Assembly: GCA_027364875.1 (NCBI GenBank)
Contig: DAHXON010000009.1
Coordinates: forward strand, 913-64,912
Origin: Chloroflexota bacterium
GTDB taxonomy: Bacteria > Chloroflexota > Limnocylindria > Limnocylindrales > CSP1-4
DNA: 64,000 nucleotides
Direction of reading: 5' to 3'
A model generated the notes under the pieces. It searched no databases. It was given only the letters and a program-made list of their open reading frames with translations, and was not told the origin of the DNA. Numbering within the stretch: position 1 is the stretch's first letter; each line of letters begins with the position of its first letter. A program made the position numbers and the translations under genes. Below, one piece after another: positions 3,935-61,332 of the stretch.

Positions 3935-3983
3935 TTCGCCACTCTACACAAGGTCGCCCGCGCCGTGCCAGGCTCCCCGGCCA

Positions 3984-5576: not shown

Positions 5577-5736
5577 CTATCCCCTCTCCTCGTCGCAGAA
5601 CGCCGCCGGTTGAGTGCCTCCGGCGCCACCTCAACGCTCCGCCCCGCACTTCCTGCCGAACCGAGCCGCCGGAGGAACTCGCCTGAGACGTTTCCGGTGG
5701 GCCGGGCGTGGCGCGGGCCGCGGCTAGACTCTGGCA

Positions 5737-26570: not shown

Positions 26571-26650
26571 CGCGAGAACGGCCTCCTGCGTAGCGGAATC
26601 CAGGGTTGTTCCCGACGCGGTCCTCGACCGGCCTGCTACGATGCCCAACC

Positions 26651-34680: not shown

Positions 34681-34681
34681 C

Positions 34682-36588: not shown

Positions 36589-36809
36589 GGCGGGAGCCTC
36601 AGACCGAGAGCTCGAAAGTTGCGGAGGGCGCCGGCAACCCCGGCCCCCAACCCGCGGGAGCCCCGGTCGGACGGACATCCGATGGTGAGGGGGTAGCCGG
36701 CGGCAAGCGTTTGCTCGGCCGCCTGTCGAACGGTCGAACCAACGGTGAAGCCGGCAAGTCCGATTCGTCGGAGCCGGCGCCCACCAGGGCGTTCGAAGCG
36801 CCGCACAAG

Positions 36810-37901
36810 ATGGAAAAGGAAACCTTCCTGACCCACCTTGCCGGCCTGACGCTGCTCAGCTTCTGGAGGACTTCCTCCTGGATCGTCGGCCACCTGCCCG
36901 CTGGCCTCACGTACCGCGTCGGCGGCTGGATCGCGATGATCGGCTACGCCGCGAGTCCGCTTCGCCGTAAGTGGCTTAGGGCCAACTTCAGCCACGTACT
37001 GGGCGTCTCGCCCACGGACAAAGCCGCCGGGGCGATGGCCCGCCGGGCATACCGCAACTACGCCCGCTACATCCTGGAGTTGATGCGACTGCCCTGGCTT
37101 TCCCAGGAGCAGGCGGAGGGCTTGCTCGAGGTGGAAGGCCTCGACAAGTTCCTGGAGATCTACAAGGCCTCCAAGGGCACCGTCCTGGTGGCGGCCCATC
37201 TCGGCAACAACGAAGCGGCCGCGGCGGGCTTCGCCAAGCACGGCCTCCAGATCAACGTCGTCGGCGACGACAGCTCCTACCGGGAGCTCTATGAGCTCTT
37301 CGAGCGCCAGCGCGAGAGCTGGGGCGTCAAGATGATCTCGTGGCGCAACCTGCGCGGCGTCTTCGGGGCCCTGCGTCGCCACGAAGGGCTGGTCCTGCTG
37401 GTCGACTGGGGATATCGCGCCGACGACATCCCGGTCAAGATGTTCGACTGCTGGACGACGCTGCCGGCCGGACCGGCCGGCCTTGCGGCCAGGCACGGCT
37501 CGGCGATCGTGCCGTTCTGCATCAACCGCCTCCCCAACGGCACCTTCCACGCCTACGCGGACGACCCGATCCACGTCGCGTCCGACTCGCCGCGGGACAT
37601 TGCGATCGCCACTCAGGCCATCGCGACGGCTCTCGAGGGTCACATCGCCCCGGCTCCGGAGCAGTGGTACATCTTCAAGCCGATCTGGCCCCTCACCGAA
37701 GCCGAGCAGCAGAAGCTGGCCGAGCGTCACGACGCCGCCATGGCGAACGACGCGAAGGGCGCGGCCGCGAACGGTCGAACCAACGGCAAGGACCACGGTC
37801 CGGCTGAGCGTTCGGCAGCGGAGCGTTCGGCGGAAGGCTCCGCCGGCGAAGTGGCCGCGGACGGTGTCACGACCGCGGACGCGGCTCCCGAGGCCGGCTG
37901 A
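36810..37901 (+). CDS. LpxL/HtrB-PatA-type lysophospholipid (PIM) acyltransferase, copy 1
   Basis: 363 aa from the ATG at 36810 (ORF opens earlier; start uncertain); HX4E motif AAHLGNNEAA; FKPIWP tail; acidic/Ala-rich C-extension. Confidence 0.78.
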   Translation: MEKETFLTHLAGLTLLSFWRTSSWIVGHLPAGLTYRVGGWIAMIGYAASPLRRKWLRANFSHVLGVSPTDKAAGAMARRAYRNYARYILELMRLPWLSQEQAEGLLEVEGLDKFLEIYKASKGTVLVAAHLGNNEAAAAGFAKHGLQINVVGDDSSYRELYELFERQRESWGVKMISWRNLRGVFGALRRHEGLVLLVDWGYRADDIPVKMFDCWTTLPAGPAGLAARHGSAIVPFCINRLPNGTFHAYADDPIHVASDSPRDIAIATQAIATALEGHIAPAPEQWYIFKPIWPLTEAEQQKLAERHDAAMANDAKGAAANGRTNGKDHGPAERSAAERSAEGSAGEVAADGVTTADAAPEAG

Positions 37902-37904
37902 GTC

Positions 37905-38936
37905 ATGGCTCGCTCCGCGTCTCCGGCAGTGGCTCACAAGCCGGCCCGGCGCGGCCCGCGGCGGCGGCTCGCAGATGAGTTCACCGCCGCCGCGGCGATC
38001 CTCGGGCTCAAGCTCCTATACCTCCTGCCAGAGCGGGCCGCGTGGCACCTCGCCAACTTCGCGGGCAACCTCTCGTACCGGTTGTCGCGCGGCCGTCGCG
38101 ACCATGCCCGCCGCAACCTCCGCCGAGTGGTGGAGTGGATGGCCGCCAACGGCGCGGGCGACGAGTATCACCGGGCCGCGGCGACGGACCCGCGGCGCCT
38201 CGAAGCGCTGCTGCGTGAAGCCTTCCGCAACCACGCCCAGTACTACGTGGAGCTGGCCCGGGCGCCGCGCTTCACGCCGGATTTCGTGCAGGCTCGCATG
38301 CTCGTGGAGACACCGGCCGAAGTTCGGGAGTGGTTCGGAAAGCGGCGGGCGATGATCCTGGTGGGCCTCCATTTCGGGGCGATCGAGTTTCCGGGCCTCT
38401 TTGCCGTGTCGCACCTGGGCCGGATCGTCGCGCCGATGGAAACGATGGCCAATGCCCGAATCCAGCGATACCTCTTCTCGGTCCGGGCGACGATCGGCGT
38501 ACGGATCATCGGCCTCGACGAGGCGGGACCGGACCTCATTGCCACTCTCCGGCGCGACGAGCCGGTGGGCCTCGTTGCCGACCGCGACCTCACCGGTGGG
38601 GGAATCGAGGTGGATTTGTTCGGTGCGAAGACGAAGATCCCCGCCGGCCCCGTTGTGCTGGCCGTGGAGTCGGGCGCGCCGATGTGCGTCGCGGCCGTGC
38701 GACGCGACGGCCCGGGCCGGTATCTTGGCAAGTTGTACGGGGTGTCCGTGCCCGAGGCGGCGTCTCGCCGGGAGCGAAGCCGGATGATGGTTCGCGAAGA
38801 AGCCAGGCTCTTCGAACGGCTGATCTCCGACGCGCCCGAGCAGTGGCTGGCCCTCTTCCACCCGGTCTGGCCGGACCTGGAGGGAACGTCGCCGGCTGAT
38901 CGGCCGGCCGGCGACTTCGTGGTGCCTCATGCGTGA
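37905..38936 (+). CDS. LpxL/HtrB-PatA-type acyltransferase, copy 2
   Basis: 343 aa, ATG 3 nt after the previous stop; HX4E motif GLHFGAIEFPG; LVADRDL; FHPVWP. Confidence 0.78.
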   Translation: MARSASPAVAHKPARRGPRRRLADEFTAAAAILGLKLLYLLPERAAWHLANFAGNLSYRLSRGRRDHARRNLRRVVEWMAANGAGDEYHRAAATDPRRLEALLREAFRNHAQYYVELARAPRFTPDFVQARMLVETPAEVREWFGKRRAMILVGLHFGAIEFPGLFAVSHLGRIVAPMETMANARIQRYLFSVRATIGVRIIGLDEAGPDLIATLRRDEPVGLVADRDLTGGGIEVDLFGAKTKIPAGPVVLAVESGAPMCVAAVRRDGPGRYLGKLYGVSVPEAASRRERSRMMVREEARLFERLISDAPEQWLALFHPVWPDLEGTSPADRPAGDFVVPHA

Positions 38937-39840
38937 CCGGAGCGAGCGCCTCGGCCAGGCGGACATGCACATCCATTCCCTGGCCTCCGACGGGACCGCG
39001 TCGGCAGAGCAGATCCTCGACTACGTCGAGAACCACACGGACCTCGACGTCTTCGCCATCGCCGACCACGAACGCATCGAGGCGGCGATCGAGTGCCAGC
39101 GCATCGCCCGGGCCCGTGGCAGCCGCGTCGAGGTCGTCGTCGCCGAGGAGGTCACGACCCGCAGCGGACACCTCCTCGGGGTCTTCCTGCAGGCTCGCCT
39201 GCGGCGCAACCAGCGCCTCGAGACCACGGTCGCCGAGATACACGAGCAGGGCGGCCTCGCGATCGTCCCGCATCCTTTCTCGGCCTTCACCAAGGGGATG
39301 CGCAAGAACGCCATAATGCGCATCCACAACTCCAGGGACCCGCTGCTCTACTGGGATGCGCTGGAGGGCTACAACCCTTCGACGGCGGGGCGGTACGGGC
39401 GCAACGCCACCATCCGCCTGGCCGCCGAGCTCGGCCTGCCGCTCGTGGGCAACAGCGATGGCCATACCGTCGACACAATCGGCGACGGCCGGACGCTCTT
39501 TCCGGGCCACACGGCCGAGGACTATCGCCGGGCCGTCCTCGAAGGCACGACGACGGGCACGTGCACCACGTGGGGCTTCCTGCGCGAGGCTCTGATCTAC
39601 GGTCAGCAGGTCCGAAAGCAGGCCCGCGACGTGGCCCGCTGGGGCCGCCGCAACTTCCTCCGCGACGGCACACCTCGCGACCTGGGCGTGCCGCACGAGC
39701 AGCTGGAGATGCAGCGGCGCCGCGAGGCCGAGTACCTTGCCAGCCGCGGGCTGGCCGCGCGCGGTCCGGCGAGTCGCGGCCTTGCCGCGGAGATGGCCCA
39801 GGCGGCGGAGCGCCGAGAGGCGGAGGAGCCTTCAGCGTGA
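38929..39840 (+). CDS. PHP-domain metal-dependent phosphoesterase
   Basis: 303 aa; overlaps the upstream gene by 8 nt; ADMHIHSLASDG, FAIADHERIE, AIVPHPFS, VGNSDGH metal-ligand blocks. Confidence 0.8.
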   Translation: MRDRSERLGQADMHIHSLASDGTASAEQILDYVENHTDLDVFAIADHERIEAAIECQRIARARGSRVEVVVAEEVTTRSGHLLGVFLQARLRRNQRLETTVAEIHEQGGLAIVPHPFSAFTKGMRKNAIMRIHNSRDPLLYWDALEGYNPSTAGRYGRNATIRLAAELGLPLVGNSDGHTVDTIGDGRTLFPGHTAEDYRRAVLEGTTTGTCTTWGFLREALIYGQQVRKQARDVARWGRRNFLRDGTPRDLGVPHEQLEMQRRREAEYLASRGLAARGPASRGLAAEMAQAAERREAEEPSA

Positions 39841-41030
39841 AGATCGGACTCGTGACCCCGTACGTGTACCCGCTTCCCGGCGGAGTGAACGAGCACGTCC
39901 GGTTCCTCTACGAGAACCTTCGACTCCGCGGCCACGACGTCCGGATCATCACCAGCAGCCACGGCCTCCAGCGCTCGTCCGAGGGCGACGTCATTCGGAT
40001 CGGCAAGGGCTTCAGCGTTCCGAGCAACGGGTCCGTCGGGACGATCACGCTCTCGCCGCGCTACGTCTCGCAGGTCCAGAGGGTTCTCGAGCGCGAGCGC
40101 TTCGACCTGCTCCACTTCCACGAGCCCTTCGTCCCGTTTCTCTCGCTCGTGGTCCTGCACCAGTCCACGAGCGTCAACGTCGCCACGTTCCACGCCTATG
40201 CCGGGTTCTCGCCCGCGATGGAGTTCGGAAAGCGGACGCTGGGCAGCTACTCGGCGCGGCTCCACGGTCGCATCGCGGTCAGCGCCGCCGCGCGCCACTT
40301 CGTGGACCGCTTCTTCCCGGGCGATTACAAGGTCATCCCCAACGGCGTGAACCTGGGCCGATACCACCGGGCCGTGCCCATCGCGCGCTGGCAGGACGGC
40401 ACCCCCAATGTCCTTTTCGTCGGCCGCCTCGAGGATCGCAAAGGCCTTCCTTACCTTCTCAAGGCGTACCGGCTGCTCCGCAAGGACGGGACCAGCTGCC
40501 GCCTCCTCGTGGTCGGCTCGGGGCCGCAGGAACGCGAGGCGCGACGGTACGTGATGACCCGCCGGCTGCAGAACGTAGAGTTCCTCGGCCGGGTCAGCGA
40601 CGCGGAGAAGGCCCAGCTATTCAAGACGGCGGACGTGTTCGTCTCGCCGGCCACCGGTCGCGAGTCGTTCGGCATCGTGCTGCTCGAAGCGATGGCGTCG
40701 GGCGCGCCGATCGTCTGCAGCGACATCCACGGTTACAAGGGCGTGGTCCAGCGTGGCCGCCAGGCCGTCCTGGTTCCGCCCCGGGATGCGCGCAGCCTGG
40801 CCGCCGGCATCAAGGAGCTGCTCGCCGACCCGGATCTGAGGAAGCGGATGGGTGCGGCGGGCCTCGAGCGGGCCGAGCAGTTCGGCTGGGAGAACGTGAC
40901 CGGCCGGGTGGAGGCTTACTACGGCTTCGTGATCCGGCGACTTGCGGCGCAGGGCCAGCTGCCGCCCGGCTTCAACGCCGAGATACCGCCCACTCCGTCG
41001 CCCGCCCATCCGATGATGGCCAAACTCTGA
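39837..41030 (+). CDS. pimA: GT4 glycosyltransferase, phosphatidylinositol mannosyltransferase-like
   Basis: 397 aa; GTGA overlap with the PHP gene; VKIGLVTPYVYPLPGGVNEHV, FVGRLEDRKG, RESFGIVLLEAMASGAPIV; operon context with pgsA1/ino1/acyltransferases. Confidence 0.82.
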   Translation: MKIGLVTPYVYPLPGGVNEHVRFLYENLRLRGHDVRIITSSHGLQRSSEGDVIRIGKGFSVPSNGSVGTITLSPRYVSQVQRVLERERFDLLHFHEPFVPFLSLVVLHQSTSVNVATFHAYAGFSPAMEFGKRTLGSYSARLHGRIAVSAAARHFVDRFFPGDYKVIPNGVNLGRYHRAVPIARWQDGTPNVLFVGRLEDRKGLPYLLKAYRLLRKDGTSCRLLVVGSGPQEREARRYVMTRRLQNVEFLGRVSDAEKAQLFKTADVFVSPATGRESFGIVLLEAMASGAPIVCSDIHGYKGVVQRGRQAVLVPPRDARSLAAGIKELLADPDLRKRMGAAGLERAEQFGWENVTGRVEAYYGFVIRRLAAQGQLPPGFNAEIPPTPSPAHPMMAKL

Positions 41031-41047
41031 CGAGCCGGATCGCCGGG

Positions 41048-41063
41048 GGGGTGGTGCCACCCC
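41048..41063. terminator. GC hairpin between convergent genes (weak terminator candidate)
   Basis: GGGGTGG-TG-CCACCCC inverted repeat between the pimA stop and the stop of the giant minus-strand gene; no U-tract. Confidence 0.2.
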
Positions 41064-41121
41064 GTCGAGTCTCTGGCGTCGATCCTCAGAGCGGAGCACC
41101 GGGGGTCGCGAGACCGTTTGA

Positions 41122-44100
41122 CTAGCTTTGCGAGGGAGGCTCGGAATCGGGCGTCGCTTCAGCGTTCGACGGCGGGTCGGAGTGGGGAGCCAGCTCGGCG
41201 TAACCTGCCTCGAGGGCATCCGACGAGTCCGACTGGCCGGCCGAGAGCTGAGCGCGGCGGTAGCCGACGACCAGCCGCCGCTCCCACGCCACCCAGCTGG
41301 CGATCCCGGCGAGAGCGAGCACGAAGACCGTGACGGTCACAGTCGCGGAGGTGACCAGACCAACCCCCTGCGATTCCTGGAGGTTGTCGGAGAACTGGAA
41401 GCCGTACAGCCAGGTGGGAAGCAGCGAGTTGTAGATGCCGGTTATGGCCTGTGGCATCGGCAGCGCAGAGAGATTCGGATACAGTGCCGCGAACGCAAGG
41501 ATCGCGAAGACGATCACGCCGACCACGAAACGTCTGGGGTTCGTGCCGATTGCGGCGACGATCGCGAGCACCACGCCGAAGGCGACGAACACGATCGCCA
41601 GGTAGTCGGACGGCAGGGCCGCCTGGAAGAGAGTGGTTCGGGGGCCGTTCTGTCCGATCACCCACAGGAGCGCGCCGGCGATCGCCACGGGGACCACGAG
41701 CTGGAGTGCCCAATACGGGTCTTCGTAGCCGCGGTCCTGGCGCCGCTCGAGGCGCCACAGGATGACCGCCAGCACGGCGAGCGCGACGACCAGCACCACA
41801 CCGATCAAGAACAGGCGGGTCTCGATGACTACGTTGCCGGTGCCGGTGCCGCAGACCGTGTTCTGGAAGTACTGGGTCGTGTCCACGCGGGCAAGGCCAC
41901 AGAGCTCAGGTTTGAGCAGCCACATCACGCCGGGGAACAGGCAGGCGGCCACGGCGCTGCCACGAGCCAGCAACCAGGTTCGCCGCGACGGACCGTGCCA
42001 GATCTCGGCGAGGAAGTAGGCCAGCGCCGCGAGGAAGAAGGGTAAGGCCGTATAGAAGTGGTACTGGAAGGCGGCCCGATCGATACGCGACCAGGAGATC
42101 CATTGCCACAGGAAGGCGATCACGATCAGGGCGAGGCCCAGATTCCGCCTCTTGTACGCCTGCCAGCAGATGAAGCCCATCGCCCCGATCGCCACCCACC
42201 ACAGGACCGGGTTCCCGCCGTCGTAGATCATCGAGGTGTTGTCGCCCGCGTAGCCGATGCTCTCGAACCAGACCGGCTTGAGGTCCATCGGCCAGGCCCA
42301 CCACGGCGACGAGGCGGCGTGCGCGGCGCGCAGGTTGTTGTGATAGTTGTACATCTGGATGGTCAGGTCCCAGAGGGTCTGACCCGTGTGGCCTGCCGGC
42401 CATGCGTCGGTGCAGATGGTCGCCAGGGAGTTGGTGGGGTCGGGGGCGGTGTGCCAGCAGGCGATGGCCGGTAGGGGGCCGGTCGCCGCGGTCTGCGTCT
42501 GCCACGGCATGGCCCAGGGTATGTAGAACAGCACGTAGACGACGATCGGCAGGAGCATCACACAGAAGGTCATCCAGAGGGCGGGCAGGCCGTAGCCGCT
42601 GCCCAGCCGCAACCAGCCTTCCGGAGCGGGAGAGGGTGGGGCGGCGAAGCGGGCGTAGTCTTTCTCGCCCGGGGCCTTCGCGAGCGGCCCGAAGCCGAGC
42701 AGGCCTACCCCCTGGAAAACGACCCTCGCGACGATTCCGAGCGCGACGAGGCCCAGCCCGCCGAGCAGCATCTTGTGACCCTGGGCGGAGATGAACCCGC
42801 TCAGTAGGCCGCTCAGGAAGCCGTGCTCGAACGCGAAGCCCAGTACGGCGACGATGACACCTGCCGCGCCAACCCCCACGGTTGCGAACCAGAGCTCCTC
42901 GCGCGTCCAGGCCACGGGCCGGTAGGCGTTGCCCGCGGCCGCCAGGGCCGTGATGCCGAGCATGATCAGGAAGAAGGTGTAGTTGGGCGCACCGTTGTCG
43001 ATGGAGGCCGGCGTGAACGTCAGGGCCGCTCCGACCAGGAGCGCCGCGATCACGGCGGTCACGATGCCGGTGAACACCTTATCCGGGGTAGTCCGCTGGG
43101 ACGTCGTCCAGTACGCGCCGACGACCGCCACCACGAGGGCCAGGAAGATGAGCGCGATGACCATCGGCGGACTGCCGGTGTTCGGCGCGGTGGTCATCTC
43201 CGCGATGGCCTGCCAGCCCAGGACGCCCGTGCCCGCGGCGAGTCCCAGAATCGTGACCAGGCGGCCGAGCGCCGAGCGGATCAGGATGAGGATGCCGATG
43301 CTGGCCATGGCATAGAAGGCGACCCATTTGCTGGCCAGGGCCAGGCCCAGGATCACTCCGAGCAGCGGCATTCCTAACCAGAAAGCCGCCCGCCTCTTCC
43401 ATACCAGCCACATCAGGGCGAACAGCAGGTACGCGAGTAACAGGAAACCGCCGACGTAGGTGTCGTTCATGGCGATGCGGGATTGGGCAAAGAACATCCC
43501 GTCGATCAGGCTGAAGAGGGCCACCAGCAGGCCCACGGTCCGGCGCCGGAACAGGATCCGGACGAGGAGGTAGAGGCAGGCTGCCATCAGTGCCCCGAAC
43601 AGGACGCCCACGATCCGCCAGGAGAAGGCGAACTGGCCTACGTCCACGGAGGCCATCGAGCCTGTGGACGAGAAGGCGAGGACCTGTTCGCGATCCGTGT
43701 CCGGCAGCCGCAGCGTCGAGTCGAGGCCGATCGCGGCGGGCTCGAACGGCAGCTTCGCGTCGGAGAAGAAAGCATTGCCGTTGCCTTCGATCGCGTAAAC
43801 GGTCCAGCCTGAGCCGTCCTGGGTCTTGCCGAGGGCCTGGGCGACGTGCGTCGCTCTGTCCCACATCACTTTGGTGATGGCCCCGGGCATAGCGCGGAGC
43901 GGCTGGCTGCCGTCCGCGGCGACCGTGCCGGTGCCCCCGGTGGTACTCGGCCTGAAGAGGAGGATCGAGTTGCCGGCGGCCGCGTACGAGTCGGAGCCGT
44001 TGGAGTTGACCGAATCCGGGTTGATGGCGATGGACGTGACCGGTTGGGACGTCGAGATCGCCGGGATCGGGTTCCCGTCCTTGTCTTTTGTCGTCAGGAC

Positions 44101-47100
44101 CACGTGGCGCGCGTCGAGGAGACCGAGGCCGCTCTTGTAGGCGACCAAAACTTCCGGGTTGGTGGTCTGCAGCGAGATGCCCGGCAGCGAGCCCTGCGAG
44201 ATCGCCGTCTGCACGGCCGATGCCTGCGCGGAGGCAAGCGACCCGACCGGCAGAGGCCGGCTTATGTTCGGCGGCGCGCTCCTGATCGCGCTTTCGATCT
44301 CGGCAGCATTGCCGCCGATGAGCGAGGCGAGCTGCTGAGCCTCGGCCGAGGCGTCGGTGACCTTGGAGCCCAGGACGTCGAGTGTCTGGGGTGCGGTCCC
44401 GAGGTCAGCGAAGTCGGCTGCGCCCGGCACGTTCCCCTGCCCGACGACCGTGCCTCCGTCCTGGGTGAGATCCACCGAGACGATGTTCCCGCCGGAGTCG
44501 GCGGCGAGGATGAACGGCGGAGTGCCCGCATAGAGATGGGCGATGTCGATGCCGGTGTTGACGCTCAGCTCGGTCGCGGGAGCTACAGAGCCAACCCCGA
44601 GTCGCGCGCCGTCGAGCGAGTTGAGGTCCAGTCGCCAGATCCGGCCCTGGGCTGTGCCCACGTAGAGGACGCCCGTTGCGTCGCCCGGAGACGCGAAGGT
44701 GGTCGCTCCCGGGATGTCGTAGGTCCATTCGGAGGCCCGCGTCTGAAGGTCGAAGACGCGAACCTGGCTGCCCGTCGCGACGAAAACCCGGTCGCCGAAA
44801 CGGTTGTCGGCGTTCGAGAAGGCATCGTTGGCGCCGGTGTTCGCCAGGGGTGAGGCTTCGAGGCGCGGCTCGACGTAGGCGTCCGTGACCGGGACGTTGA
44901 GGTCGTTGGTCGCGGTCACCTTGTCGTCTGAGAAGACGGTGATACCACCCGCGATGGCGTACTTGGCGAGCATCGGGTGGGTCCACTCGTAGATGTAGTT
45001 GCCGGGGATGTCGTGCGGGATGCCGTAGCGCCAGTCCTGGAGGAACTCGGTGGCGGACCTGGCGTGATAGACCTCGTCGAAGTACATCTGGCGCGGTTCA
45101 CCCAGGCGGTAGATCCGCAGGCACAGGATCGCGGCGACGAGCGCCACGACGACCCAGATGTCGAGCTTGTCGATGCGGCCGTGAGGCTCGGAATCGAGCG
45201 CCGGCGAGCGGTCCGGATAGCTCGATGGCCCGGCAAACCGGCGCCAGACCCGCATCACGCTGCGGGGCACGTATACCGGTCTCCTGCTCTCGTCCTCGTA
45301 TTCTTCGTCGAGCTCGTCCGAGTAGGCCCAGTCCTCAGATCCCTCGGGCTCCTCGGATTCCAGGGGCTCCTCGTACGGAGCCGTCTCGGAGTCGGAGGCG
45401 GCTGAGGGCCCGGTTGTGGATGCTGAGGTCGCGCCTGCGGCCACGGACGCGCGACCAGTCGAGGCCGGTACTTGCGGGATGGCGCGGGCGCCGGCAGCGG
45501 GCGGCTCGTCGTCCATCCTCGGCGCGAACCAGGAAATGAACCAGGAACCTGACTCTTCCTCGCCCGCCCCCTCGGCCTCGAGCTCGAGGCTGTTGGAGGC
45601 CATGCCGCGCATCTGCATCAGCGCCCAGAACATGACGGCCCCGGTGACGACGGCGGATACCGTGATCGGCCAGACCAGGCCGGACAGCTGGGAATTGAGG
45701 AGGTACGTGCCCCAGTCGTTGAGCGTCGTCGCCGCCCAGCCGTCCGTCAACGGGACCCCCTTGTACTGAACGAGCACTGCCACGAGGTTGGCCGAGTTGA
45801 CGACGGCCAGCAGCACGTAGGCGATTCGCCAGCGCCAGGAAACCGCGAACAGAAGTGCGCCGAGTCCGAAGAACGGGAAGAGGTAGCGCTCGTGGACGCG
45901 AGTGGGAACCACGAAGAAGGCGATCGCCATTATCGTGAGCGCGACGAGGAGGGAGAGGGCATCGTCGCGCCAGGCCGCCCAGAAGGCCGCGCTGACGAGG
46001 ACGAGGACCAGCAGCACGTCGCCGAATATCGCGGCCGGAATAGGCCCGAACGGCTGGATCACCAGCAGCGCGGCGAGGACGACCGCCGTTACGACGAACA
46101 CGGCCGCCAGGCTGCGCAGCTCCTCGACCCAGTCGTGACGTTCGCGCCAGCCGCCCACCCATGCCGCACCCGAGCCGGATTCCCGGGCAGCCGGCGTGTC
46201 TTCGGATCGCGCGTCATCCGATTCGGCCGGCAGCGCGGCCTCTCGCCGTCGTGCCGCTCCCCACGCCAGGAACGCACCCAGCGCGAGCGCTGCGATCGCG
46301 ACGGCGATCACGAGGATCCAGGCCGCGGAGAAGTGCCCGATCCCGTACCAGGGCTGCGGCCCCAGCTGAGGATCGATGTAGGAGATGTCCCGGAGCCAGC
46401 TCTTGCTGGTGGCCATGCCCTGGCCGTCCGCGGTCTGCAGGAGAGCCCACGGGTTGTAGGCGTTGAGGGTGAGGTACGGGTACTCGCCGAAGGCGGACGC
46501 CAGATGGCTGACGATCGCGTTGAAGACCATCGCCCCCGACAGCACCACGGTCACGAGAGCGGCCACTCCGGCGACGGCGGCGCGGTAGGCCGACTCCGCG
46601 ATCGGAAGATAGCGCCACGCCAGAGCCGCGACCCCCGCCGCGGCCACGACGCCGGCGAGAAGCGTCAGCGCGCCGGCGTAGGTCCCGAGCCGGCTGACGT
46701 AGCCGCCGAAATCGAGTCCGGTGAACGGCAGGCAAATCAGCCCGGCGGTCAGCAGGCCCGCCCCGAGCGAAGTGAGGACCCGCATCGGGTCCGCCTCGCC
46801 TTCCTTGGGGAACAAGGACCTGCGTAGGATCACCACGCCCACGAGAACGGCCAGGATGCCGAGCTGCATCTTGGTCAGGACCGATACGACGGCAAGCGCG
46901 GCGGCTGTCTCCCTGCGGTCCTTCAGCAGCTCACGCAGGCCCAGCAGCAGGAATATCGAGCCGACCGCGTCGGCCTGGCCCCAGATGGCGCTGTTGATCC
47001 AGGTGATCGGATTGACGAGTATGACCACGGCCACGATCGTGGCTCGCCAGGTTGAGGCGCCCAGCTCCACGGCCATGTAGTAGACGAGGGCGGCAAGGCC

Positions 47101-47433
47101 CAGGTCCGCCAGCATGGGGATGAGCTTGATGCCCTCACCGATGCTCCCACCCATCACGAAGCTGATGACGGCGAGGAGTGCCAGGTAGACGGGCGGGTAA
47201 TCGATGAAGCCCTGTCGCTCGTAGAAGCCGACCGGCCCGTGCTGGGCTATGTCGTTGGCCCAGTACTGGAAGGCGTTCAGGTCGACTGGGAATCCGGACC
47301 CCGGCAGAAGAACGTATGCGATGATGACGCGGAGGAACAGACCCAGGGCCAGGAGAACGACGATGGCGGGCAGTACATCCGCGGCACCACCGGTACCCGC
47401 CGCCGTGCGCCCCCGAGGGCTGCCCTCTCGCAA
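41122..47433 (-). CDS. giant polytopic protein: N-terminal Gpi18/PIG-V/DUF2029-like GT-C domain fused to a PMT (GT39)-like protein O-mannosyltransferase domain carrying a ~425-aa propeller-like insertion
   Basis: ORF open to 47814 (2230 aa) but its first ~127-146 codons are Arg/Pro/Ala junk overlapping the divergent gene; TTG at 47433 (or 47448) is the last start before the first TM. Domain 1: FPVDLNAFQYWANDI..IDYPPVYLALLAV. Acidic linker. Domain 2: RIYRLGEPRQMYFDEVYHARSA (FDEVYH at 45064-45081), ..EWTHPMLAKY.., AQSRIAMNDTYVGG, C-terminal SSPWWAWP..GNPVLWW..AAFQYHFYTALPF. Confidence 0.85.
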   Translation of the reverse strand: MREGSPRGRTAAGTGGAADVLPAIVVLLALGLFLRVIIAYVLLPGSGFPVDLNAFQYWANDIAQHGPVGFYERQGFIDYPPVYLALLAVISFVMGGSIGEGIKLIPMLADLGLAALVYYMAVELGASTWRATIVAVVILVNPITWINSAIWGQADAVGSIFLLLGLRELLKDRRETAAALAVVSVLTKMQLGILAVLVGVVILRRSLFPKEGEADPMRVLTSLGAGLLTAGLICLPFTGLDFGGYVSRLGTYAGALTLLAGVVAAAGVAALAWRYLPIAESAYRAAVAGVAALVTVVLSGAMVFNAIVSHLASAFGEYPYLTLNAYNPWALLQTADGQGMATSKSWLRDISYIDPQLGPQPWYGIGHFSAAWILVIAVAIAALALGAFLAWGAARRREAALPAESDDARSEDTPAARESGSGAAWVGGWRERHDWVEELRSLAAVFVVTAVVLAALLVIQPFGPIPAAIFGDVLLVLVLVSAAFWAAWRDDALSLLVALTIMAIAFFVVPTRVHERYLFPFFGLGALLFAVSWRWRIAYVLLAVVNSANLVAVLVQYKGVPLTDGWAATTLNDWGTYLLNSQLSGLVWPITVSAVVTGAVMFWALMQMRGMASNSLELEAEGAGEEESGSWFISWFAPRMDDEPPAAGARAIPQVPASTGRASVAAGATSASTTGPSAASDSETAPYEEPLESEEPEGSEDWAYSDELDEEYEDESRRPVYVPRSVMRVWRRFAGPSSYPDRSPALDSEPHGRIDKLDIWVVVALVAAILCLRIYRLGEPRQMYFDEVYHARSATEFLQDWRYGIPHDIPGNYIYEWTHPMLAKYAIAGGITVFSDDKVTATNDLNVPVTDAYVEPRLEASPLANTGANDAFSNADNRFGDRVFVATGSQVRVFDLQTRASEWTYDIPGATTFASPGDATGVLYVGTAQGRIWRLDLNSLDGARLGVGSVAPATELSVNTGIDIAHLYAGTPPFILAADSGGNIVSVDLTQDGGTVVGQGNVPGAADFADLGTAPQTLDVLGSKVTDASAEAQQLASLIGGNAAEIESAIRSAPPNISRPLPVGSLASAQASAVQTAISQGSLPGISLQTTNPEVLVAYKSGLGLLDARHVVLTTKDKDGNPIPAISTSQPVTSIAINPDSVNSNGSDSYAAAGNSILLFRPSTTGGTGTVAADGSQPLRAMPGAITKVMWDRATHVAQALGKTQDGSGWTVYAIEGNGNAFFSDAKLPFEPAAIGLDSTLRLPDTDREQVLAFSSTGSMASVDVGQFAFSWRIVGVLFGALMAACLYLLVRILFRRRTVGLLVALFSLIDGMFFAQSRIAMNDTYVGGFLLLAYLLFALMWLVWKRRAAFWLGMPLLGVILGLALASKWVAFYAMASIGILILIRSALGRLVTILGLAAGTGVLGWQAIAEMTTAPNTGSPPMVIALIFLALVVAVVGAYWTTSQRTTPDKVFTGIVTAVIAALLVGAALTFTPASIDNGAPNYTFFLIMLGITALAAAGNAYRPVAWTREELWFATVGVGAAGVIVAVLGFAFEHGFLSGLLSGFISAQGHKMLLGGLGLVALGIVARVVFQGVGLLGFGPLAKAPGEKDYARFAAPPSPAPEGWLRLGSGYGLPALWMTFCVMLLPIVVYVLFYIPWAMPWQTQTAATGPLPAIACWHTAPDPTNSLATICTDAWPAGHTGQTLWDLTIQMYNYHNNLRAAHAASSPWWAWPMDLKPVWFESIGYAGDNTSMIYDGGNPVLWWVAIGAMGFICWQAYKRRNLGLALIVIAFLWQWISWSRIDRAAFQYHFYTALPFFLAALAYFLAEIWHGPSRRTWLLARGSAVAACLFPGVMWLLKPELCGLARVDTTQYFQNTVCGTGTGNVVIETRLFLIGVVLVVALAVLAVILWRLERRQDRGYEDPYWALQLVVPVAIAGALLWVIGQNGPRTTLFQAALPSDYLAIVFVAFGVVLAIVAAIGTNPRRFVVGVIVFAILAFAALYPNLSALPMPQAITGIYNSLLPTWLYGFQFSDNLQESQGVGLVTSATVTVTVFVLALAGIASWVAWERRLVVGYRRAQLSAGQSDSSDALEAGYAELAPHSDPPSNAEATPDSEPPSQS

Positions 47434-47477
47434 GCTCGAGCCTGCCAACCGATACGGCCTCCTGGGCGAGCGCTGAG

Positions 47478-49391
47478 GTGGAGCGGAGTATACCCCACGA
47501 GGTCGGCGACGACGGGCTGCCGGAGGAAGCGGAGCCCTCCTGGTCTGGCGCTCCGCAGCCCGAAGAGCCGATCGGCGGAGCGTCGAAGGCGGCGCCGCCG
47601 CGGCCGCAGCCGCCCTCCGAGGAGCCAGGAGAAACCGCCGGCAGCGAGGACGAGGACTGGGAAGGGCCCGATCCGTGGACCCTCGTGATCGGCTACGGGA
47701 TCGTCGTGGCCTGCTTCCTCGTCTACTTCCTGATCCACCTGGATCGGCCCAACGACTACCTCCACTTCGTCCTGCAGGCGCAGGCCTGGCTCGACGGCAA
47801 CACCTCGATTCCAATGCCGCGCTACCAGGACGTGATGCCGATCCTCGGACCGGATGGCGTCGCGACCGGGAGAGGCATCATCCCTTTCCCGCCTCTGCCG
47901 GCCTGGGTCCTGCTCCCCTTCGTCTCGATCTGGCATGAGGCGACCAATCAGCAGCTGCTCTCGGCCGTCTTTGGAGCGATCGACGTCGGGATCGCCTACT
48001 GGATGCTCGGCCGCCTGCCGATCGACCTTCGCGTTCGGGCGCTGACGTCGGTTTTCTTCGGCCTCGGGACCGTTCTCTTCTATACCTCCGTGATCGGGTC
48101 CACCTGGTTCTTCGCCCACGTCGTCGCCGTCGCCTGCCTCTTGCTGTCGGTCGGCGTGGCCCTCGGCGCCGACCCGGATGCGGCGCGGCCGGTTCCGCTC
48201 AACTCGGTGGCGGGCGCGATCAAAGGCTGGAGCTTCCCGGGCCGCTGGGTCGGGGTCGTCGCCCTCGTGGCGCTCGGGATCGTGGGTGAGGGCTTTCTGA
48301 TCTCCGCCGAGGCCGGCAAACCGGCGGCCACGATCGCCCTCGCGGGGCTCGGGATCGGGGTACTGGCCGCTCTGCTCGCCGTGGCCGTCGACGGTCGGTG
48401 GCAGGTCCTGACGGCGTCGGCCGTGGTACTGGCTCTCGCGGTCGGCGTGCCCGGGCTCTTCCTGATGGCCGTCTACGCCCCGGACCTCACGATCGCGGTC
48501 GACGTCGGGCTCGTCCTGGCCGCGATGGCGGCTGCCGGTCTGGCCCTGCGGCGCCCGGAGGCGTTCCGGCGCGGCCAGTCGATCCTGTGGGCGGAGCTCT
48601 CGAGGCCGGAGTCCCTCCAGGTGGCGGCGGGCCTGCTATTCGGCCTGGCGATCACCGCCCGCCTGACCATCCTCTTCGGCTTCCCGTTCCTGATGCTCGT
48701 CGGCGGCGGCGGAACCTGGATGCGGCGCAGCCTGCTGGCCGGCGCCGGCGCCGCCGTGCCTCTCATCGCCCTGCTGGTGGTCACGTACGCCACGAGTGGG
48801 CAGCTGTTCAACCCGGCCTACGACTACCTCTACCACAACGAGCTGCTCCAGTACGGCTCCGTGCTCGACTACCACGCCGGCTGGGCGATCAGCGACATCC
48901 GGTACGTGCCGCAGAACCTGGCGATCATGCTGTTCCAGGGTCCGGAGATCGCACCGAACTTCGTGGGCATCGTTGGGCCGGATTACGGGACGCCAACTTG
49001 CCTGGCCACGAACGCCGCCCGCGGCCTGTTCGATACCAGCTGCCCGCTGGCGATGCCGAACGCGGTCGGCATGAGCATCCTGCTCTCGAGCCCGGCCTTC
49101 ATGCTCGCTCCGCTCGCCTGGGGACCGCTCCACCGGCTCCATCTCGACAGGGTCACGGCCGGCGCCACGATCGCCGTGGTGGCGATAGCCTTCGCCAACC
49201 TGATGCACTTCAGCCAGGGATGGGTCCAGTTCGGCTACCGTTTCAGCAACGACTTCGTGCCGTACGCGCTGGTGCTGGTGGCTCTCGGCATGAGCCGGCT
49301 TCGCTGGCTCGGGCCGGCCGTGGCGCTGGTCGTGCTTTCGATCGTGATCAACTTCTGGGGAACGATATGGGGAACCATCCTTGGCTGGTGA
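47478..49391 (+). CDS. polytopic membrane protein, putative GT-C glycosyltransferase
   Basis: 637 aa, GTG start; acidic N-tail then ~14 TM helices; first loop HLDRPNDYLHFVLQAQAWLDGNTSIP..IIPFPPLPAW; family assignment is pattern-level only. Confidence 0.65.
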   Translation: MERSIPHEVGDDGLPEEAEPSWSGAPQPEEPIGGASKAAPPRPQPPSEEPGETAGSEDEDWEGPDPWTLVIGYGIVVACFLVYFLIHLDRPNDYLHFVLQAQAWLDGNTSIPMPRYQDVMPILGPDGVATGRGIIPFPPLPAWVLLPFVSIWHEATNQQLLSAVFGAIDVGIAYWMLGRLPIDLRVRALTSVFFGLGTVLFYTSVIGSTWFFAHVVAVACLLLSVGVALGADPDAARPVPLNSVAGAIKGWSFPGRWVGVVALVALGIVGEGFLISAEAGKPAATIALAGLGIGVLAALLAVAVDGRWQVLTASAVVLALAVGVPGLFLMAVYAPDLTIAVDVGLVLAAMAAAGLALRRPEAFRRGQSILWAELSRPESLQVAAGLLFGLAITARLTILFGFPFLMLVGGGGTWMRRSLLAGAGAAVPLIALLVVTYATSGQLFNPAYDYLYHNELLQYGSVLDYHAGWAISDIRYVPQNLAIMLFQGPEIAPNFVGIVGPDYGTPTCLATNAARGLFDTSCPLAMPNAVGMSILLSSPAFMLAPLAWGPLHRLHLDRVTAGATIAVVAIAFANLMHFSQGWVQFGYRFSNDFVPYALVLVALGMSRLRWLGPAVALVVLSIVINFWGTIWGTILGW

Positions 49392-51270
49392 CGCACTGAC
49401 CCGAGCACCGTCGGGTCGCATCGGTTCCAACGCGGGCCGCACCGTCGGGGCAGCCCTGGCGCGCCTGGCCGATCCGGTATTCCTCGAGGCGGCACTCGGC
49501 CCCGTCATCGTGGCCGCCCTCGCCCTCCTGGTCATCATCCCCACCCTGGCCCCCACCGTCGCCAACTGGGACACGGCCGAGTTCCAGACCGTCGGCCCGG
49601 TCATGGGCACGGCCCACCCCACCGGCTACCCCGCCTACGTGATCCTGGGCTGGTTCGCCGGGGTCCTGTTCCAGCCATTCGGTGACCCGGCCTTCCGGAT
49701 GAACCTCCTCCAGGCTGTTCTGGCCGCGGTAGCCGCCGGAGCGACCACGGTGGTGGTGGGGCTCCTGACGGGGCGCCGATACGTGGCGCTGGCCGCCGGC
49801 TTGCTGCTCGTGGCGATGCCCTTTGTCTCGGACGTGACGGTCACGTTGCCGGTCACGGGCACCATCACCGCGACGCCGGTATTCATGCGGCTCGCGACCC
49901 ATGCGGACCCACACATGTTCCACGCGGCCCTCGTGGCGATCCTCTTCGGCGTGCTGATCGTCTGGGACAAGCGGATCCACGCTCTGGACCCGGAGGATCG
50001 CGGCAGAGCGGACCGCTGGCTGGTCGCCGCGGCATTCGTGTACGCCGTCGCCGTGGCCAACCATTCGTTGGCCCTGCTCCTGCCTCCGGCGATCGGCCTG
50101 TTCGTGCTGCTGGTCGACTGGCGGGTGATCCTGCGTCCGCGCACCGTCGCGGCCTGCGTCCTTGTCCTCGTCGGGACGCTCGTGGTCCTGTTCGCGGAGC
50201 TGCCGATACGCGCGGCCATGCACGCCCCGCTGGTCTACGGCCACCCGGATACCATCGGCGGCTTCGCCTACGTAGTTCTCGCCGAGCAGTTCCGGGGCAG
50301 CCTGGTGGACCCATTCGGCAACCTCGGCGACAAGACCGCGGCGATCGTGAGCTTGATGTACGGCTGGCTCGGACCGCTCCTCTACGTGGCCATACTCGGT
50401 CTCGGGACGAGCCTGATCCGGCGGCCTCGCTACCTGGTGCTGAGCGGGCTCACGCTCCTGGTGACGTGCTACTTCTCCACCGCGTACAGCAACGCGGACA
50501 TCGAGCGCTACTTCCTGGTTCCGGTGCTGATCGCATTCACGTGGGTCGGCCTCGGAGTCGCGGACCTTGTCGGAGGGGCGGCGTACGTGGCCACCTGGAT
50601 TTCCGAGCGCATCACGCCGGAAGCCACGGCAAATACGACCGAAGCCGCATCTCCCGAGCCGCCCGACTCGGCGGCAGCGTCTTCCGACCCGGCCCGGGAC
50701 CCGGACACTGAGCCGGAGCCGGAGCCGGAGCCGGACCCCGAGCTCGGAACGCGTCCTCGCGGGCGCCCGGGCAACCGATACGCCTGGGCGCTGCTGGTCG
50801 GCGAGATCGCCGCGGCGGTCGTCCTGGTCGCACCCATTCCCGCCGTCATCCCCGACCGTCAGAGGCCGCTCAGCACCTTCGATCCGGGCGGCGTGAGTGA
50901 AGCGGCCATGACCGCGGATTCGGAGTGGATGCACCAGGTTCTGGCCGCGCCGGACAAGGGCGGCCTGCCGCAGAACTCGGTCGTGGTTTCGTGGTGGAGC
51001 ACCTCCACGACGCTGTGGTACGGCCAGCGAGTCCTCGGCCTTCGGCCCGACATCTACATCGTCGATGATCGAACCAGGCTCGACGACAACCTGGGTTCGG
51101 TTCAGGATGTCTTCAACAGATTCCTGGGTAATAGGCCGGTCTTCACCATCCGCCTAGCCGGGGGAGTCGACGGTATGCAGGCGCTCAGCGCCGAGTACGA
51201 CATCGCGCCGTACAAGCTGGGGGATGGATCCACGATCAACCAGGTCCTCGGTCGAAAGGGAAGCCAGTGA
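49381..51270 (+). CDS. DUF2723 (TMEM260-like) GT-C family glycosyltransferase
   Basis: 629 aa, TTG start overlapping the previous stop; APTVANWDTAEFQTVGPVMGTAHPTGYPAYVILGWF matches the DUF2723 first-loop signature; soluble C-terminal domain. Confidence 0.75.
   Translation: MAGDALTRAPSGRIGSNAGRTVGAALARLADPVFLEAALGPVIVAALALLVIIPTLAPTVANWDTAEFQTVGPVMGTAHPTGYPAYVILGWFAGVLFQPFGDPAFRMNLLQAVLAAVAAGATTVVVGLLTGRRYVALAAGLLLVAMPFVSDVTVTLPVTGTITATPVFMRLATHADPHMFHAALVAILFGVLIVWDKRIHALDPEDRGRADRWLVAAAFVYAVAVANHSLALLLPPAIGLFVLLVDWRVILRPRTVAACVLVLVGTLVVLFAELPIRAAMHAPLVYGHPDTIGGFAYVVLAEQFRGSLVDPFGNLGDKTAAIVSLMYGWLGPLLYVAILGLGTSLIRRPRYLVLSGLTLLVTCYFSTAYSNADIERYFLVPVLIAFTWVGLGVADLVGGAAYVATWISERITPEATANTTEAASPEPPDSAAASSDPARDPDTEPEPEPEPDPELGTRPRGRPGNRYAWALLVGEIAAAVVLVAPIPAVIPDRQRPLSTFDPGGVSEAAMTADSEWMHQVLAAPDKGGLPQNSVVVSWWSTSTTLWYGQRVLGLRPDIYIVDDRTRLDDNLGSVQDVFNRFLGNRPVFTIRLAGGVDGMQALSAEYDIAPYKLGDGSTINQVLGRKGSQ
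50710..50733 (+). repeat. (GAGCCG)x4 hexanucleotide repeat inside the DUF2723 gene
   Basis: Four perfect tandem GAGCCG units encoding (EP)4 within an acidic loop. Confidence 0.9.
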
Positions 51271-52067
51271 GTGCCAGCGTCCGTCCAAGCACGGCAGTCG
51301 AGTCGGGGCCGACCGCGCCGCGGGTGCCCGAGCTCTCCTTCTTCTTTCCTGCCCACAACGAGGAGGCCAACCTCGAGGCGCTGGTCGAAGAGGCTTTCGC
51401 GGCCCTGCCGGCCATCGCCGAGAAGTTCGAGATCATCGCCGTCGACGACGGTTCGAAGGATCGGACGCCGGCCATCGCCGACGCGCTCGCGGCCGCTCAT
51501 CCGGACGTCTTTCGCGTCGTCCACCATCCGGTCAACCGGGGCTACGGCGCGGCCCTGCGCTCCGGCTTCGACGCCTCTCGCTTCTCGTTGATCGCGTTCA
51601 TCGACGGCGACCGCCAGTTCAAGGTGGCGGACGTCGGCCGGCTGACACAGCGGATCCAGGCCCCGGATAGCCCGGACGTGGTGGTGGGTTACCGGCTCAA
51701 GCGCGCCGATCCGCCGATCCGGCGCTGGTATGCGCGCATCTACCGCCTGGCCAACCGGATCTTCTTCGGCGTTCGCGTCCGCGACATCGACTGCGCCTGC
51801 AAGCTCTTCAAGCGCGAGGCCCTGGAGCCGATCCGGGTCTCGTCCGGCGGCGCCTTCTTCACGGCCGAACTCCTCATCAAGCTGCGCTTCGAAGGCCGCC
51901 GCATCGCCCAGGTCGGGGTGCCGCACTACCCGCGGACCGCGGGTTCGCCCACCGGCGCCAGGCCCAGCGTGGTCTTCCGGGCAATGCGCGACTTCTGGTC
52001 GCTGCGCATCCGCCTCTGGTTCACCCGCGGCGCCGCCATGCGCCGGGGCAAGCCGATCCTGGGGTAA
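51267..52067 (+). CDS. GT2 polyprenol-phosphate mannosyl/glucosyl transferase (DPM1/Ppm1/GtrB-like)
   Basis: 266 aa; GTGA overlap with the upstream gene; SFFFPAHNEEANL, IIAVDDGSKDRT, NRGYGAALRSG, FIDGDRQF (DXD), FTAELL. Confidence 0.88.
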   Translation: MSASVRPSTAVESGPTAPRVPELSFFFPAHNEEANLEALVEEAFAALPAIAEKFEIIAVDDGSKDRTPAIADALAAAHPDVFRVVHHPVNRGYGAALRSGFDASRFSLIAFIDGDRQFKVADVGRLTQRIQAPDSPDVVVGYRLKRADPPIRRWYARIYRLANRIFFGVRVRDIDCACKLFKREALEPIRVSSGGAFFTAELLIKLRFEGRRIAQVGVPHYPRTAGSPTGARPSVVFRAMRDFWSLRIRLWFTRGAAMRRGKPILG

Positions 52068-61128: not shown

Positions 61129-61331
61129 AAACGGTCGGCATCGGGCTCATCAGGCTCTATCGCCGCTTGTTTGCCTGGCGTCCATCCGTCTGCCGGTACG
61201 AACCCACCTGCTCGGTGTATACGGAGCAGGCAATCGCCAAATACGGCCTGATCCGAGGGAGTTGGATGGGAATGCGTCGAATCGCCCGCTGCCACCCGTG
61301 GAGCAAGGGTGGATACGACCCTGTCCGCTGA
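61125..61331 (+). CDS. yidD: membrane protein insertion efficiency factor YidD
   Basis: 68 aa; GTGA overlap with rnpA; [29 protein letters not shown]. Confidence 0.9.
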
Positions 61332-61332
61332 G

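Follow-up and report, generated by a model that had tools for sequence, protein, structure and literature searches.

INTRODUCTION

In actinobacterial mannosylation, a GT39 enzyme, Pmt, initiates and a GT87 enzyme, PimE, extends O-mannose chains, with polyprenyl-phosphate-mannose as the donor (reviewed in PMC12757957). A July 2026 preprint (bioRxiv 10.64898/2026.07.15.738315) describes the mycobacterial GT39 enzyme (Pmt/Rv1002c) in complex with three partners, on the basis of predicted interactions, phenotype correlations and a pull-down of Pmt: (i) Rv0051, a GT87-family protein that lacks catalytic residues yet is important for Pmt function; (ii) Rv3212, an eight-bladed periplasmic beta-propeller modelled directly over the Pmt active site and (iii) Rv1209, a small DivIVA-like dimer or scaffold. 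Here we analyse a gene from a 64,000-nt stretch of a Chloroflexota genome of the class Limnocylindria (contig DAHXON010000009.1; hereafter the window), whose 2108-residue product carries a GT-C-fold module, a GT39-type protein O-mannosyltransferase (PMT) module and a predicted beta-propeller in one chain. We lean towards reading this protein as a single-chain bacterial protein O-mannosyltransferase holo-complex.

Two further reports bear on the comparison. In Paenibacillus, some GT39 enzymes carry a translationally fused GT87 module (UniProt V9WAU2; bioRxiv 10.64898/2026.07.15.738315). PimE is a polyprenyl-phosphate-mannose-dependent alpha-1,2-mannosyltransferase (PMC12041525; PMC12757957) in which D58 (the catalytic base), Y62, Y92, D160, Q163, K195, W319 and H321/H322 are essential or important (PMC12041525). 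Our literature search found no paper describing the Limnocylindria fused family or a propeller-containing PMT.

RESULTS

Reading frame and start of the fused gene

The minus-strand frame 41122..47814 is open throughout, as a preliminary description of this DNA had claimed, and comprises 2230 codons when counted from the first TTG in the window open reading frame (ORF) scan. Its G+C content at third codon positions (GC3) is 0.86, like that of the remaining genes of the window, which has an overall G+C content of 68%. The motifs on which the preliminary description relied are all present in the translation (FPVDLNAFQYWANDIAQHG, FIDYPPVYLALLAV, the acidic linker, MYFDEVYHARSA, THPMLAKY, AQSRIAMNDTYVGG, SSPWWAWP, GNPVLWW and AAFQYHFYTALPF), and the DE motif lies at 45064-45081, where it had been placed, with the codons for D791 and E792 at 45073..45078.

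The doubt that the same description expressed about the start was well founded. The first 122 codons of the frame are Arg-rich and overlap the divergent gene that begins at 47478; we reject them as wrong-frame sequence, which moves the start to the TTG at 47448, preceded by an AGGAGG element. Homologue starts align with this position (MAGPSSREGSPRGR...), each opening with M, V or L ahead of AGPSxREGSPRG, and the protein read from this TTG equals a database gene call (cluster P0001) in length and sequence.

A GT39-type module interrupted by a beta-propeller

Homologues were taken from a 5.8-billion-protein collection, which yielded 301 relatives; architecture was checked on the best 120, and residue invariance was measured across 111-115 full-length homologues.

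The C-terminal half of the protein is of the PMT/GT39 type, as first proposed. Pfam PMT (PF02366) scores 43.4 bits against a cut-off of 22.7, with aa 1274-1391 corresponding to profile positions 82-199, and PMT_4TMC (PF16192, aa 1691-1819) lies at its threshold of 32.4, with 31.9 bits for the whole ORF and 32.6 for the PMT half. In this four-helix region, whose motifs are conserved among the homologues, a family profile (alignment A2, 11 sequences) also matches the solved chains PMT 9i5k and Pmt4 9e61. The FDEVYHAR motif follows directly after PMT membrane helix 1. Its D791, E792 and R797, together with H824, P825 and K829 further along the loop and R1324, N1328, D1329 and K1374 of the PMT core, are invariant in 115/115 full-length homologues. 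The NCBIfam equivalog for bacterial Pmt (NF058602) gives 26 bits against a cut-off of 800, so far short that the protein is better regarded as a divergent GT39-type enzyme than as an orthologue of characterised Pmt.

Two additions are absent from ordinary bacterial PMTs. The first, a block of about 5-6 membrane helices ahead of the 4TMC region, occupies the place of the MIR domain in eukaryotic PMTs, has no Pfam family and is less conserved than the core. The second, a C-terminal extension of about five helices, is conserved in all homologues and shows a weak match to DUF6056 (E 7e-4, below threshold). When the N-terminal module (N-module), the loop insert described below, the middle membrane block and the C-terminal extension were compared in isolation with Pfam and NCBIfam, only sub-threshold noise was obtained (SSL_N, DUF6056, DUF1129).

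Between EWTHPMLAKY.. and the next membrane helix lies an insert of about 430 residues that corresponds to no Pfam family. In the AlphaFold2 model (alignment A2), the insert has a predicted local distance difference test (pLDDT) score of about 85-90 and consists of 31 beta-strands and a small helical sub-domain, a strand number that fits seven or eight blades. Foldseek retrieves propellers of the WD40 and BamB types, at E values of 1e-9 to 1e-7 and with target TM-scores reaching 0.66, and the family sequence profile matches 1l0q, a YVTN propeller, as well as the designed propellers named 'Cake'. The insertion point is about 50 residues past the DE motif and the Pfam PMT match resumes after the insert at profile position 82; the propeller is thus spliced into the first extracytoplasmic loop. 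All 120 of the homologues listed contain it. Given the family topology and the insertion point, the propeller would lie on the outer face of the membrane, beside the active site. The earlier domain account, which had distinguished the two GT-C modules correctly, missed both this soluble domain and the extra membrane-helix blocks.

The N-terminal GT-C module and the linker

The N-module of the window protein has no Pfam family, no NCBIfam match and no PDB sequence match, and it fails to match Pfam GT87 even at E<=10. Its AlphaFold2 model (alignment A1; pLDDT 77, predicted TM-score 0.81) is more informative. Nine of the 10 best PDB matches found by Foldseek have the GT-C fold, at probabilities of 0.99-1.00 (glycosylphosphatidylinositol (GPI) mannosyltransferase I, AglB, ALG6, PIG-U and STT3), led by GPI mannosyltransferase I (9wno, target TM-score 0.62) and ALG6 (6snh, query 0.47 and target 0.59). 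On the strength of this model we assign the N-module to the GT-C fold superfamily. The presence of two different GT-C modules is borne out by Pfam PMT at the C-terminal end and by the predicted fold at the N-terminal end.

The family within that superfamily is less sharply defined. Among 20 homologous N-modules, weak matches are seen to GT87 (PF09594, formerly DUF2029) in nine, with a best E of 6e-6, and to Alg6_Alg8 in eight, with a best E of 1e-6; a stand-alone relative (P0160) scores 31 bits for GT87 and likewise 31 bits for Alg6_Alg8. PIG-V/Gpi18 (Mannosyl_trans2) gives no Pfam match in the window N-module or in the 20 homologues, and the name 'Gpi18-like mannosyltransferase' occurs only as a JGI automatic label on some homologues. 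Of the families suggested in the preliminary description, the DUF2029 type thus survives as a weak signal that ALG6/ALG8 equals, and the PIG-V/Gpi18 type does not. PDB sequence searches with the N-module, with a 20-sequence profile and with P0160 (E up to 10) returned nothing useful and gave no residue-level alignment to PimE or ALG6.

The pattern of conservation is nonetheless distinctive. N-modules of the homologues are 38-67% identical overall, against which D56, F60, W63, D83, Y84, Y88, W156, Q158, D160, K193 and Q195 are invariant, as are the motifs YPYLTxNAYNPW and PTRVHERY (T516-R517-H519-E520-R521-Y522). D56 is part of PGSGFxxD, nine residues past helix 1, and the strongly conserved polar residues all fall on predicted outer loops. 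In unaligned sequence position, D56, Y88, Q158/D160, K193 and H519 resemble D58, Y92, D160/Q163, K195 and H322 of PimE, a striking coincidence that we take as a lead to putative catalytic residues.

The model helices and the positive-inside rule indicate a probable topology in which the N-module crosses the membrane about 16 times and has both termini on the inner side. The linker would then be cytoplasmic and PMT helix 1 would run from inside to outside, the direction that a PMT requires. The linker ends in an Arg-rich stretch ahead of that helix and is poorly conserved, with 36% gaps across the homologues.

Conservation of the fusion and occurrence of separate halves

The best 120 of the 301 relatives are 1.4-2.2 kaa long and come from independent metagenomes; those that are named belong to 'Candidatus Limnocylindrales', which taxonomy look-up gives as an order in the class Limnocylindria of the phylum Chloroflexota, or to Chloroflexota. 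To check domain order, the query was cut into seven segments that were compared by BLAST with these 120 proteins. In essentially all, the N-module is followed by PMT helix 1 with its DE motif, the propeller insert, the PMT core, the 4TMC region and finally the C-terminal extension, an arrangement kept down to about 40% identity, including in a group of 1700-1830 aa from which the acidic linker is missing. The single frame is present in 115 full-length database proteins.

A genome scan with one genome per GTDB species gave at least 589 matching stretches, of which the best 79 loci were analysed; nearly all of these are labelled Chloroflexota/Limnocylindria. The fused state is found in 62 of the 79 species-level loci, as a complete single ORF in 51 and as far as the contig end in 11. 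Another five stop short of the junction and are uninformative, and the frame is interrupted in the remaining 12. Ten of these interruptions are frame changes scattered inside domains, eight of them in long-read MFD metagenome-assembled genomes (MAGs), the exceptions being L015 and L027. Their scattered position and their predominance in long-read MAGs make them look like indel errors. The other two break in the linker. One (L059) is fragmented; the other (L070, a Limnocylindrales MAG) has a clean pair of genes, the N-module at 639..2243 and a PMT gene encoding PMT and propeller at 2240..6118, overlapping by GTGA, which could reflect a true splitting of the fused gene or an error of one base within the linker. 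A frameshift behind the fusion had been raised as a concern at the outset; conservation of the single ORF across many genomes excludes a sequencing frameshift in the window as its origin. The fusion is real and old.

Separate halves, which the preliminary description had suggested looking for, do occur. In addition to the adjacent pair at L070, a protein of 1491 aa (P0081) has PMT and propeller without an N-module, in an unrelated gene context. An exhaustive HMMER search with the N-module gave 2968 representatives at E<=1e-3. Short 'stand-alone' matches in this set were in general not accepted, many of them lying on short contigs and at least one cluster (P0133) having a member annotated as partial. 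Only P0252 (528 aa, on a 1.36-Mb contig) and P0295 (498 aa), stand-alone N-module relatives on long contigs in a 27-cluster family, were accepted as genuine separate genes. P0252 adjoins a gene for BacA undecaprenyl-diphosphate phosphatase (locus L083, 8001..10521), a neighbour in keeping with a polyprenyl-phosphate-dependent role.

Genomic context

The fused gene is flanked by two units, coordinates of which are given in Table 1 with those of the other features. On one side it converges on a complete phosphatidylinositol (PI)/phosphatidylinositol mannoside (PIM)-type operon, which suggests that PIM-like glycolipids occur outside Actinomycetota. The corresponding operons at the two loci most closely compared (L001 and L002) include two acyltransferase genes, and the window has a further gene at 36.6-37.9 kb. 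Between the convergent stops of the fused gene and its GT4 neighbour lies a 91-bp spacer (41031..41121) with a G+C-rich inverted repeat, GGGGTGGTGCCACCCC, that may be a bidirectional terminator. Shadow ORFs that are Arg-rich or high in GC3 and lie antisense to real genes are common in window DNA of this composition. Also rejected as a gene, being Arg-rich and in the wrong frame, was the plus-strand ORF 39737..41125 (462 aa), where the GT4 gene occupies another frame.

On the other side lies a divergent three-gene unit. A gene for a protein of 490-640 aa related to its 637-aa membrane protein is found directly divergent from the fused gene at L001 and L002 also; this protein may be a further unrecognised GT-C enzyme or a flippase. 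Its annotated GTG start is 29 bp from the start of the fused gene and has no good ribosome-binding site, so that the true start may be further downstream. The second gene encodes a TMEM260-like GT-C protein; in animals, TMEM260 is a protein O-mannosyltransferase. With the GT2 gene that follows, the locus has at least three GT-C modules and a candidate donor synthase. The fused protein shows no similarity to its 637-aa, TMEM260-like and 769-aa neighbours.

The same neighbour order is seen at L001 (58% identity) and at L002 (about 40% identity, on a 2.85-Mb contig). However, the whole origin-proximal stretch from dnaN to CorA is collinear in both, unrelated genes included, so that proximity to the PIM operon argues only weakly for a common pathway, and we have downgraded this synteny from the strong functional evidence it might otherwise appear to be. 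G+C dips to 0.65 in the stretch from about 60.4 to 61.3 kb, which probably contains the replication origin. Further away, a sortase-domain protein implies covalent anchoring of surface proteins, and proteins of this kind would be candidate substrates for glycosylation.

Table 1. Coordinates of the fused gene, its domains and neighbouring features in the window
Feature	Coordinates	Strand	Basis or remarks
Complete coding sequence of the fused protein, 2108 aa	41122..47448	-	TTG start at 47448, TAG stop 41122..41124
AGGAGG Shine-Dalgarno element, 10 nt ahead of the TTG start	47459..47464	-	Sequence inspection
N-terminal GT-C-fold module, aa 26-615, ~16 predicted membrane helices	45604..47373	-	AlphaFold2 model, Foldseek, homologue Pfam matches
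Linker, low-complexity, Ser/Glu/Ala/Pro-rich, aa 616-755, predicted cytoplasmic	45184..45603	-	Composition; helix parity and positive-inside rule
PMT membrane helix 1 with the first part of outer loop 1, aa 756-840	44929..45183	-	FDEVYHAR motif, EWTHPxxAKY helix
Beta-propeller in PMT outer loop 1, seven or eight blades, small helical sub-domain, aa 841-1272	43633..44928	-	AlphaFold2, Foldseek
PMT core membrane helices including AQSRIAMNDTY loop, aa 1273-1400	43249..43632	-	Pfam PF02366 PMT
Extra block, ~5-6 membrane helices and Pro-rich loop, aa 1401-1660	42469..43248	-	Hydropathy, model helices
PMT C-terminal four-helix region, aa 1661-1830; SSPWWAWP..KPVWF, GNPVLWW, FQYHFYTALPF	41959..42468	-	Pfam PF16192 PMT_4TMC
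C-terminal extension, ~5 further membrane helices and acidic, Pro-rich tail, aa 1831-2108	41125..41958	-	Hydropathy
Sortase-domain protein	26606..27457	+	PF04203, E 8e-7
PI/PIM-type operon, convergent with the fused gene	34216..41030	+	ArsR-type regulator at front; gene assignments
PIP synthase (phosphatidylinositol-phosphate synthase)	34682..35335	+	
Inositol-3-phosphate synthase (Ino1)	35332..36588	+	
PIM-acyltransferase-like gene	37905..38936	+	NCBIfam 'phosphatidylinositol mannoside acyltransferase', 134 bits against cut-off 209
PHP-domain gene	38929..39840	+	
GT4 glycosyltransferase	about 39840..41030	+	
Divergent three-gene unit	47478..52067	+	637-aa membrane protein, TMEM260-like GT-C, GT2
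637-aa multi-pass membrane protein, acidic Pro-rich N-terminus	47478..49391	+	No Pfam or NCBIfam family
TMEM260-like GT-C with Pro-rich region	49381..51270	+	PF11028, E 3e-20
GT2, most similar to polyprenyl-phosphate-sugar synthases	51267..52067	+	
769-aa protein without family	53033..55342	-	Same position (756-773 aa) in L001 and L002, between DciA and bifunctional-nuclease-domain gene
recF-like	55878..56966	-	
dnaN	57148..58266	-	
dnaA	58805..60394	-	
yidC	61309..62580	+	
jag/KhpB	62582..63691	+	

DISCUSSION

Proposed function

In the mechanism that we propose, the GT39/PMT module, with its DE motif in outer loop 1, would draw on a polyprenyl-phosphate sugar at the outer face of the membrane and pass its hexose, presumably mannose, to Ser/Thr residues of exported proteins. 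The donor could be made by the GT2 enzyme of the divergent unit, whose similarity to polyprenyl-phosphate-sugar synthases lends support to this scheme as a source of supply. The propeller in loop 1 may cap or gate the active site and select or present acceptor proteins, as is proposed for the propeller subunit in mycobacteria and for MIR domains in the eukaryotic enzymes. The N-module, tethered by the cytoplasmic linker and presumably packed with the PMT module, would be an obligate partner, the counterpart of the mycobacterial GT87-like protein and of yeast Pmt2 in Pmt1-Pmt2. Because its outer-face Asp/Lys/His constellation is invariant, the N-module may catalyse too, perhaps adding the next sugar as PimE does on mycobacterial O-mannose chains.

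Several points weigh against this proposal: (i) the sugar and the acceptor are drawn from family membership; (ii) the model of the PMT half is weak in its membrane part (mean pLDDT 61.6), and the insertion point is the basis for placing the propeller above the active site; (iii) the shortfall against the Pmt equivalog and the large insertions mean that the specificity of the PMT module may differ; (iv) the match to the mycobacterial subunits is one of architecture and weak GT87 similarity, and the two propellers could be analogues and not homologues; (v) the GT87-like partner in mycobacteria is reported to be inactive as a catalyst, and by analogy the N-module might likewise be a mere scaffold and (vi) the fused gene adjoins a PIM-type glycolipid operon. 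The last two lead to alternatives that are considered below.

The most elaborate form of the proposal is that both GT-C modules are catalytic, the propeller-gated GT39 site starting protein O-glycosylation and the tethered GT87/ALG6-like site extending the glycan. A sequential machine with two active sites is plausible in view of the invariance of putative catalytic residues in both modules, and we hold this form tentatively, as an attractive possibility that falls short of an expectation. We know of nothing similar described for GT-C enzymes, that is, of no covalently coupled initiation-elongation machine at the outer face of the membrane. If both modules are catalytic, the catalytically dead mycobacterial partner would derive from an active ancestor.

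Alternative readings

The alternative that survives best keeps the single-chain Pmt complex and allows it one active site. Here the N-module would be a non-catalytic acceptor recruiter or scaffold, like Rv0051 or as proposed for Pmt2, and GT39 would carry out all transfer. There is precedent in the mycobacterial GT87-like partner, which lacks catalytic residues and is still important for Pmt (bioRxiv 10.64898/2026.07.15.738315), and in the existence of other non-catalytic GT-C folds, with PIG-U among the structural matches; the window N-module, moreover, reaches no Pfam threshold. The invariance of Asp56 and Asp83 in the first outer loop, of Q158/D160 and K193/Q195 and of TRVHERY in 111-115 homologues, in modules that are otherwise so variable, is however an active-site-like pattern, and we consider a purely structural N-module rather unlikely.

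A different acceptor is conceivable. Both GT-C modules might use polyprenyl-phosphate sugars to extend a PI-anchored glycolipid, similar to PIM or lipomannan (LM), made by the neighbouring operon, with the propeller binding the growing glycan. The conserved-order flanks fit such a lipoglycan synthase, consisting of the PI/PIM-type operon with its PIP synthase, Ino1, PIM-acyltransferase-like and GT4 genes and of the unit with GT2 and two membrane proteins, and in Actinobacteria PIM, LM and lipoarabinomannan are products of GT-C enzymes, GT87 PimE among them (PMC12041525). Yet the fused gene is convergent with the PIM operon and therefore not co-transcribed with it, and its adjacency says little in an origin-proximal region that is collinear across the class, unrelated genes included. 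The 4TMC region and the DE motif are hallmarks of protein-directed GT39 enzymes, and the overall architecture fits the Pmt complex (bioRxiv 10.64898/2026.07.15.738315). We therefore regard this explanation as improbable. The weakest reading, that two or three neighbouring genes were joined by frameshift or misassembly into an assembly or annotation artefact, could draw on the 12 of 79 loci with an interrupted frame and on the clean two-gene arrangement at L070, but it is effectively refuted already by the uninterrupted frame in the window, by the same single ORF in more than 100 independent assemblies of differing technologies and by the scatter within domains of 10 of the 12 interruptions, a pattern typical of indel errors.

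Implications

Gene fusions are independent evidence of proteins working together. Here one chain ties a GT39 enzyme to another GT-C module and a propeller across a whole class, in a phylum unrelated to mycobacteria. The Limnocylindria fusion thereby supports a very recent and largely model-based proposal, that of complex-borne bacterial protein O-mannosylation, and suggests that the GT39/GT-C/propeller arrangement is ancient or convergent. The separate-subunit mycobacterial complex and the Paenibacillus GT87-GT39 fusions are already known; what is new here is the single-chain form with a built-in propeller. A single chain avoids stoichiometry problems, which makes the protein an attractive target for cryo-electron microscopy and heterologous expression, and it would allow a clean test of catalysis by the partner module. 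For the uncultured Limnocylindria, abundant in soil and freshwater, the fused family indicates that surface proteins are probably glycosylated. These bacteria may also make PIM-like lipids, which would be relevant to the biology of their envelope.

Comparison with known systems

The best structural matches of the N-module, ALG6 (GT57; 6SNH) and GPI mannosyltransferase I (PIG-M/Gpi14; 9WNO), are both users of dolichyl-phosphate sugars. They differ from it in being eukaryotic endoplasmic reticulum enzymes that act on lipid-linked glycans, at 12-13% sequence identity, and Alg6_Alg8 is sub-threshold for the window protein. PimE shares with the N-module the GT-C fold, an Asp soon past membrane helix 1 and, at comparable places in the sequence, Tyr, Asp/Gln and Lys residues, and its extension of PIM4 and of protein O-mannose is the type of second step that a fused N-module could perform. 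In contrast, PimE shows no significant sequence match to the N-module and is outside its top 50 structural matches; its core is smaller than the N-module with its roughly 16 predicted helices, which scores equally weakly against ALG6/ALG8.

Similarity to the eukaryotic enzymes Pmt1-Pmt2 (6P25) and Pmt4 (9E61) extends to the GT39 fold, the DE motif in loop 1 and the C-terminal four-helix region, and would also take in the pairing of GT-C units and the capping of the active site by a soluble domain, which is lumenal in the eukaryotic enzymes. Sequence similarity is limited to the PMT and 4TMC segments. The partner in Limnocylindria is from a different GT-C family and not a second GT39 as in Pmt1-Pmt2, and the cap is a beta-propeller in loop 1, whereas that of the eukaryotic PMTs is a MIR beta-trefoil in loop 5.

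The Paenibacillus protein V9WAU2, which we compare by its description in the preprint, also has GT87-type and GT39-type modules in one polypeptide. No Paenibacillus protein is found among the 120 best homologues, and the two GT87-GT39 fusions may therefore be independent.

The mycobacterial Pmt complex resembles the Limnocylindria protein in three respects: a GT39 enzyme with a DE motif, a second GT-C component with GT87-like affinities, which are weak on the Limnocylindria side, and a propeller predicted to be extracytoplasmic and associated with the active-site loop of GT39. No DivIVA-like subunit of the Rv1209 type is present among the annotated neighbours, a statement that covers annotation and not a systematic search of the window. 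The Limnocylindria components are in one polypeptide, with the propeller built into outer loop 1 of the PMT, where mycobacteria have it as a membrane-anchored subunit of its own; further differences are the added blocks of membrane helices in the PMT and the phylum, which is Chloroflexota, not Actinomycetota. Finally, mycobacterial Rv0051 is reported to be without catalytic residues, whereas the partner module of the Limnocylindria protein has invariant candidate catalytic residues.

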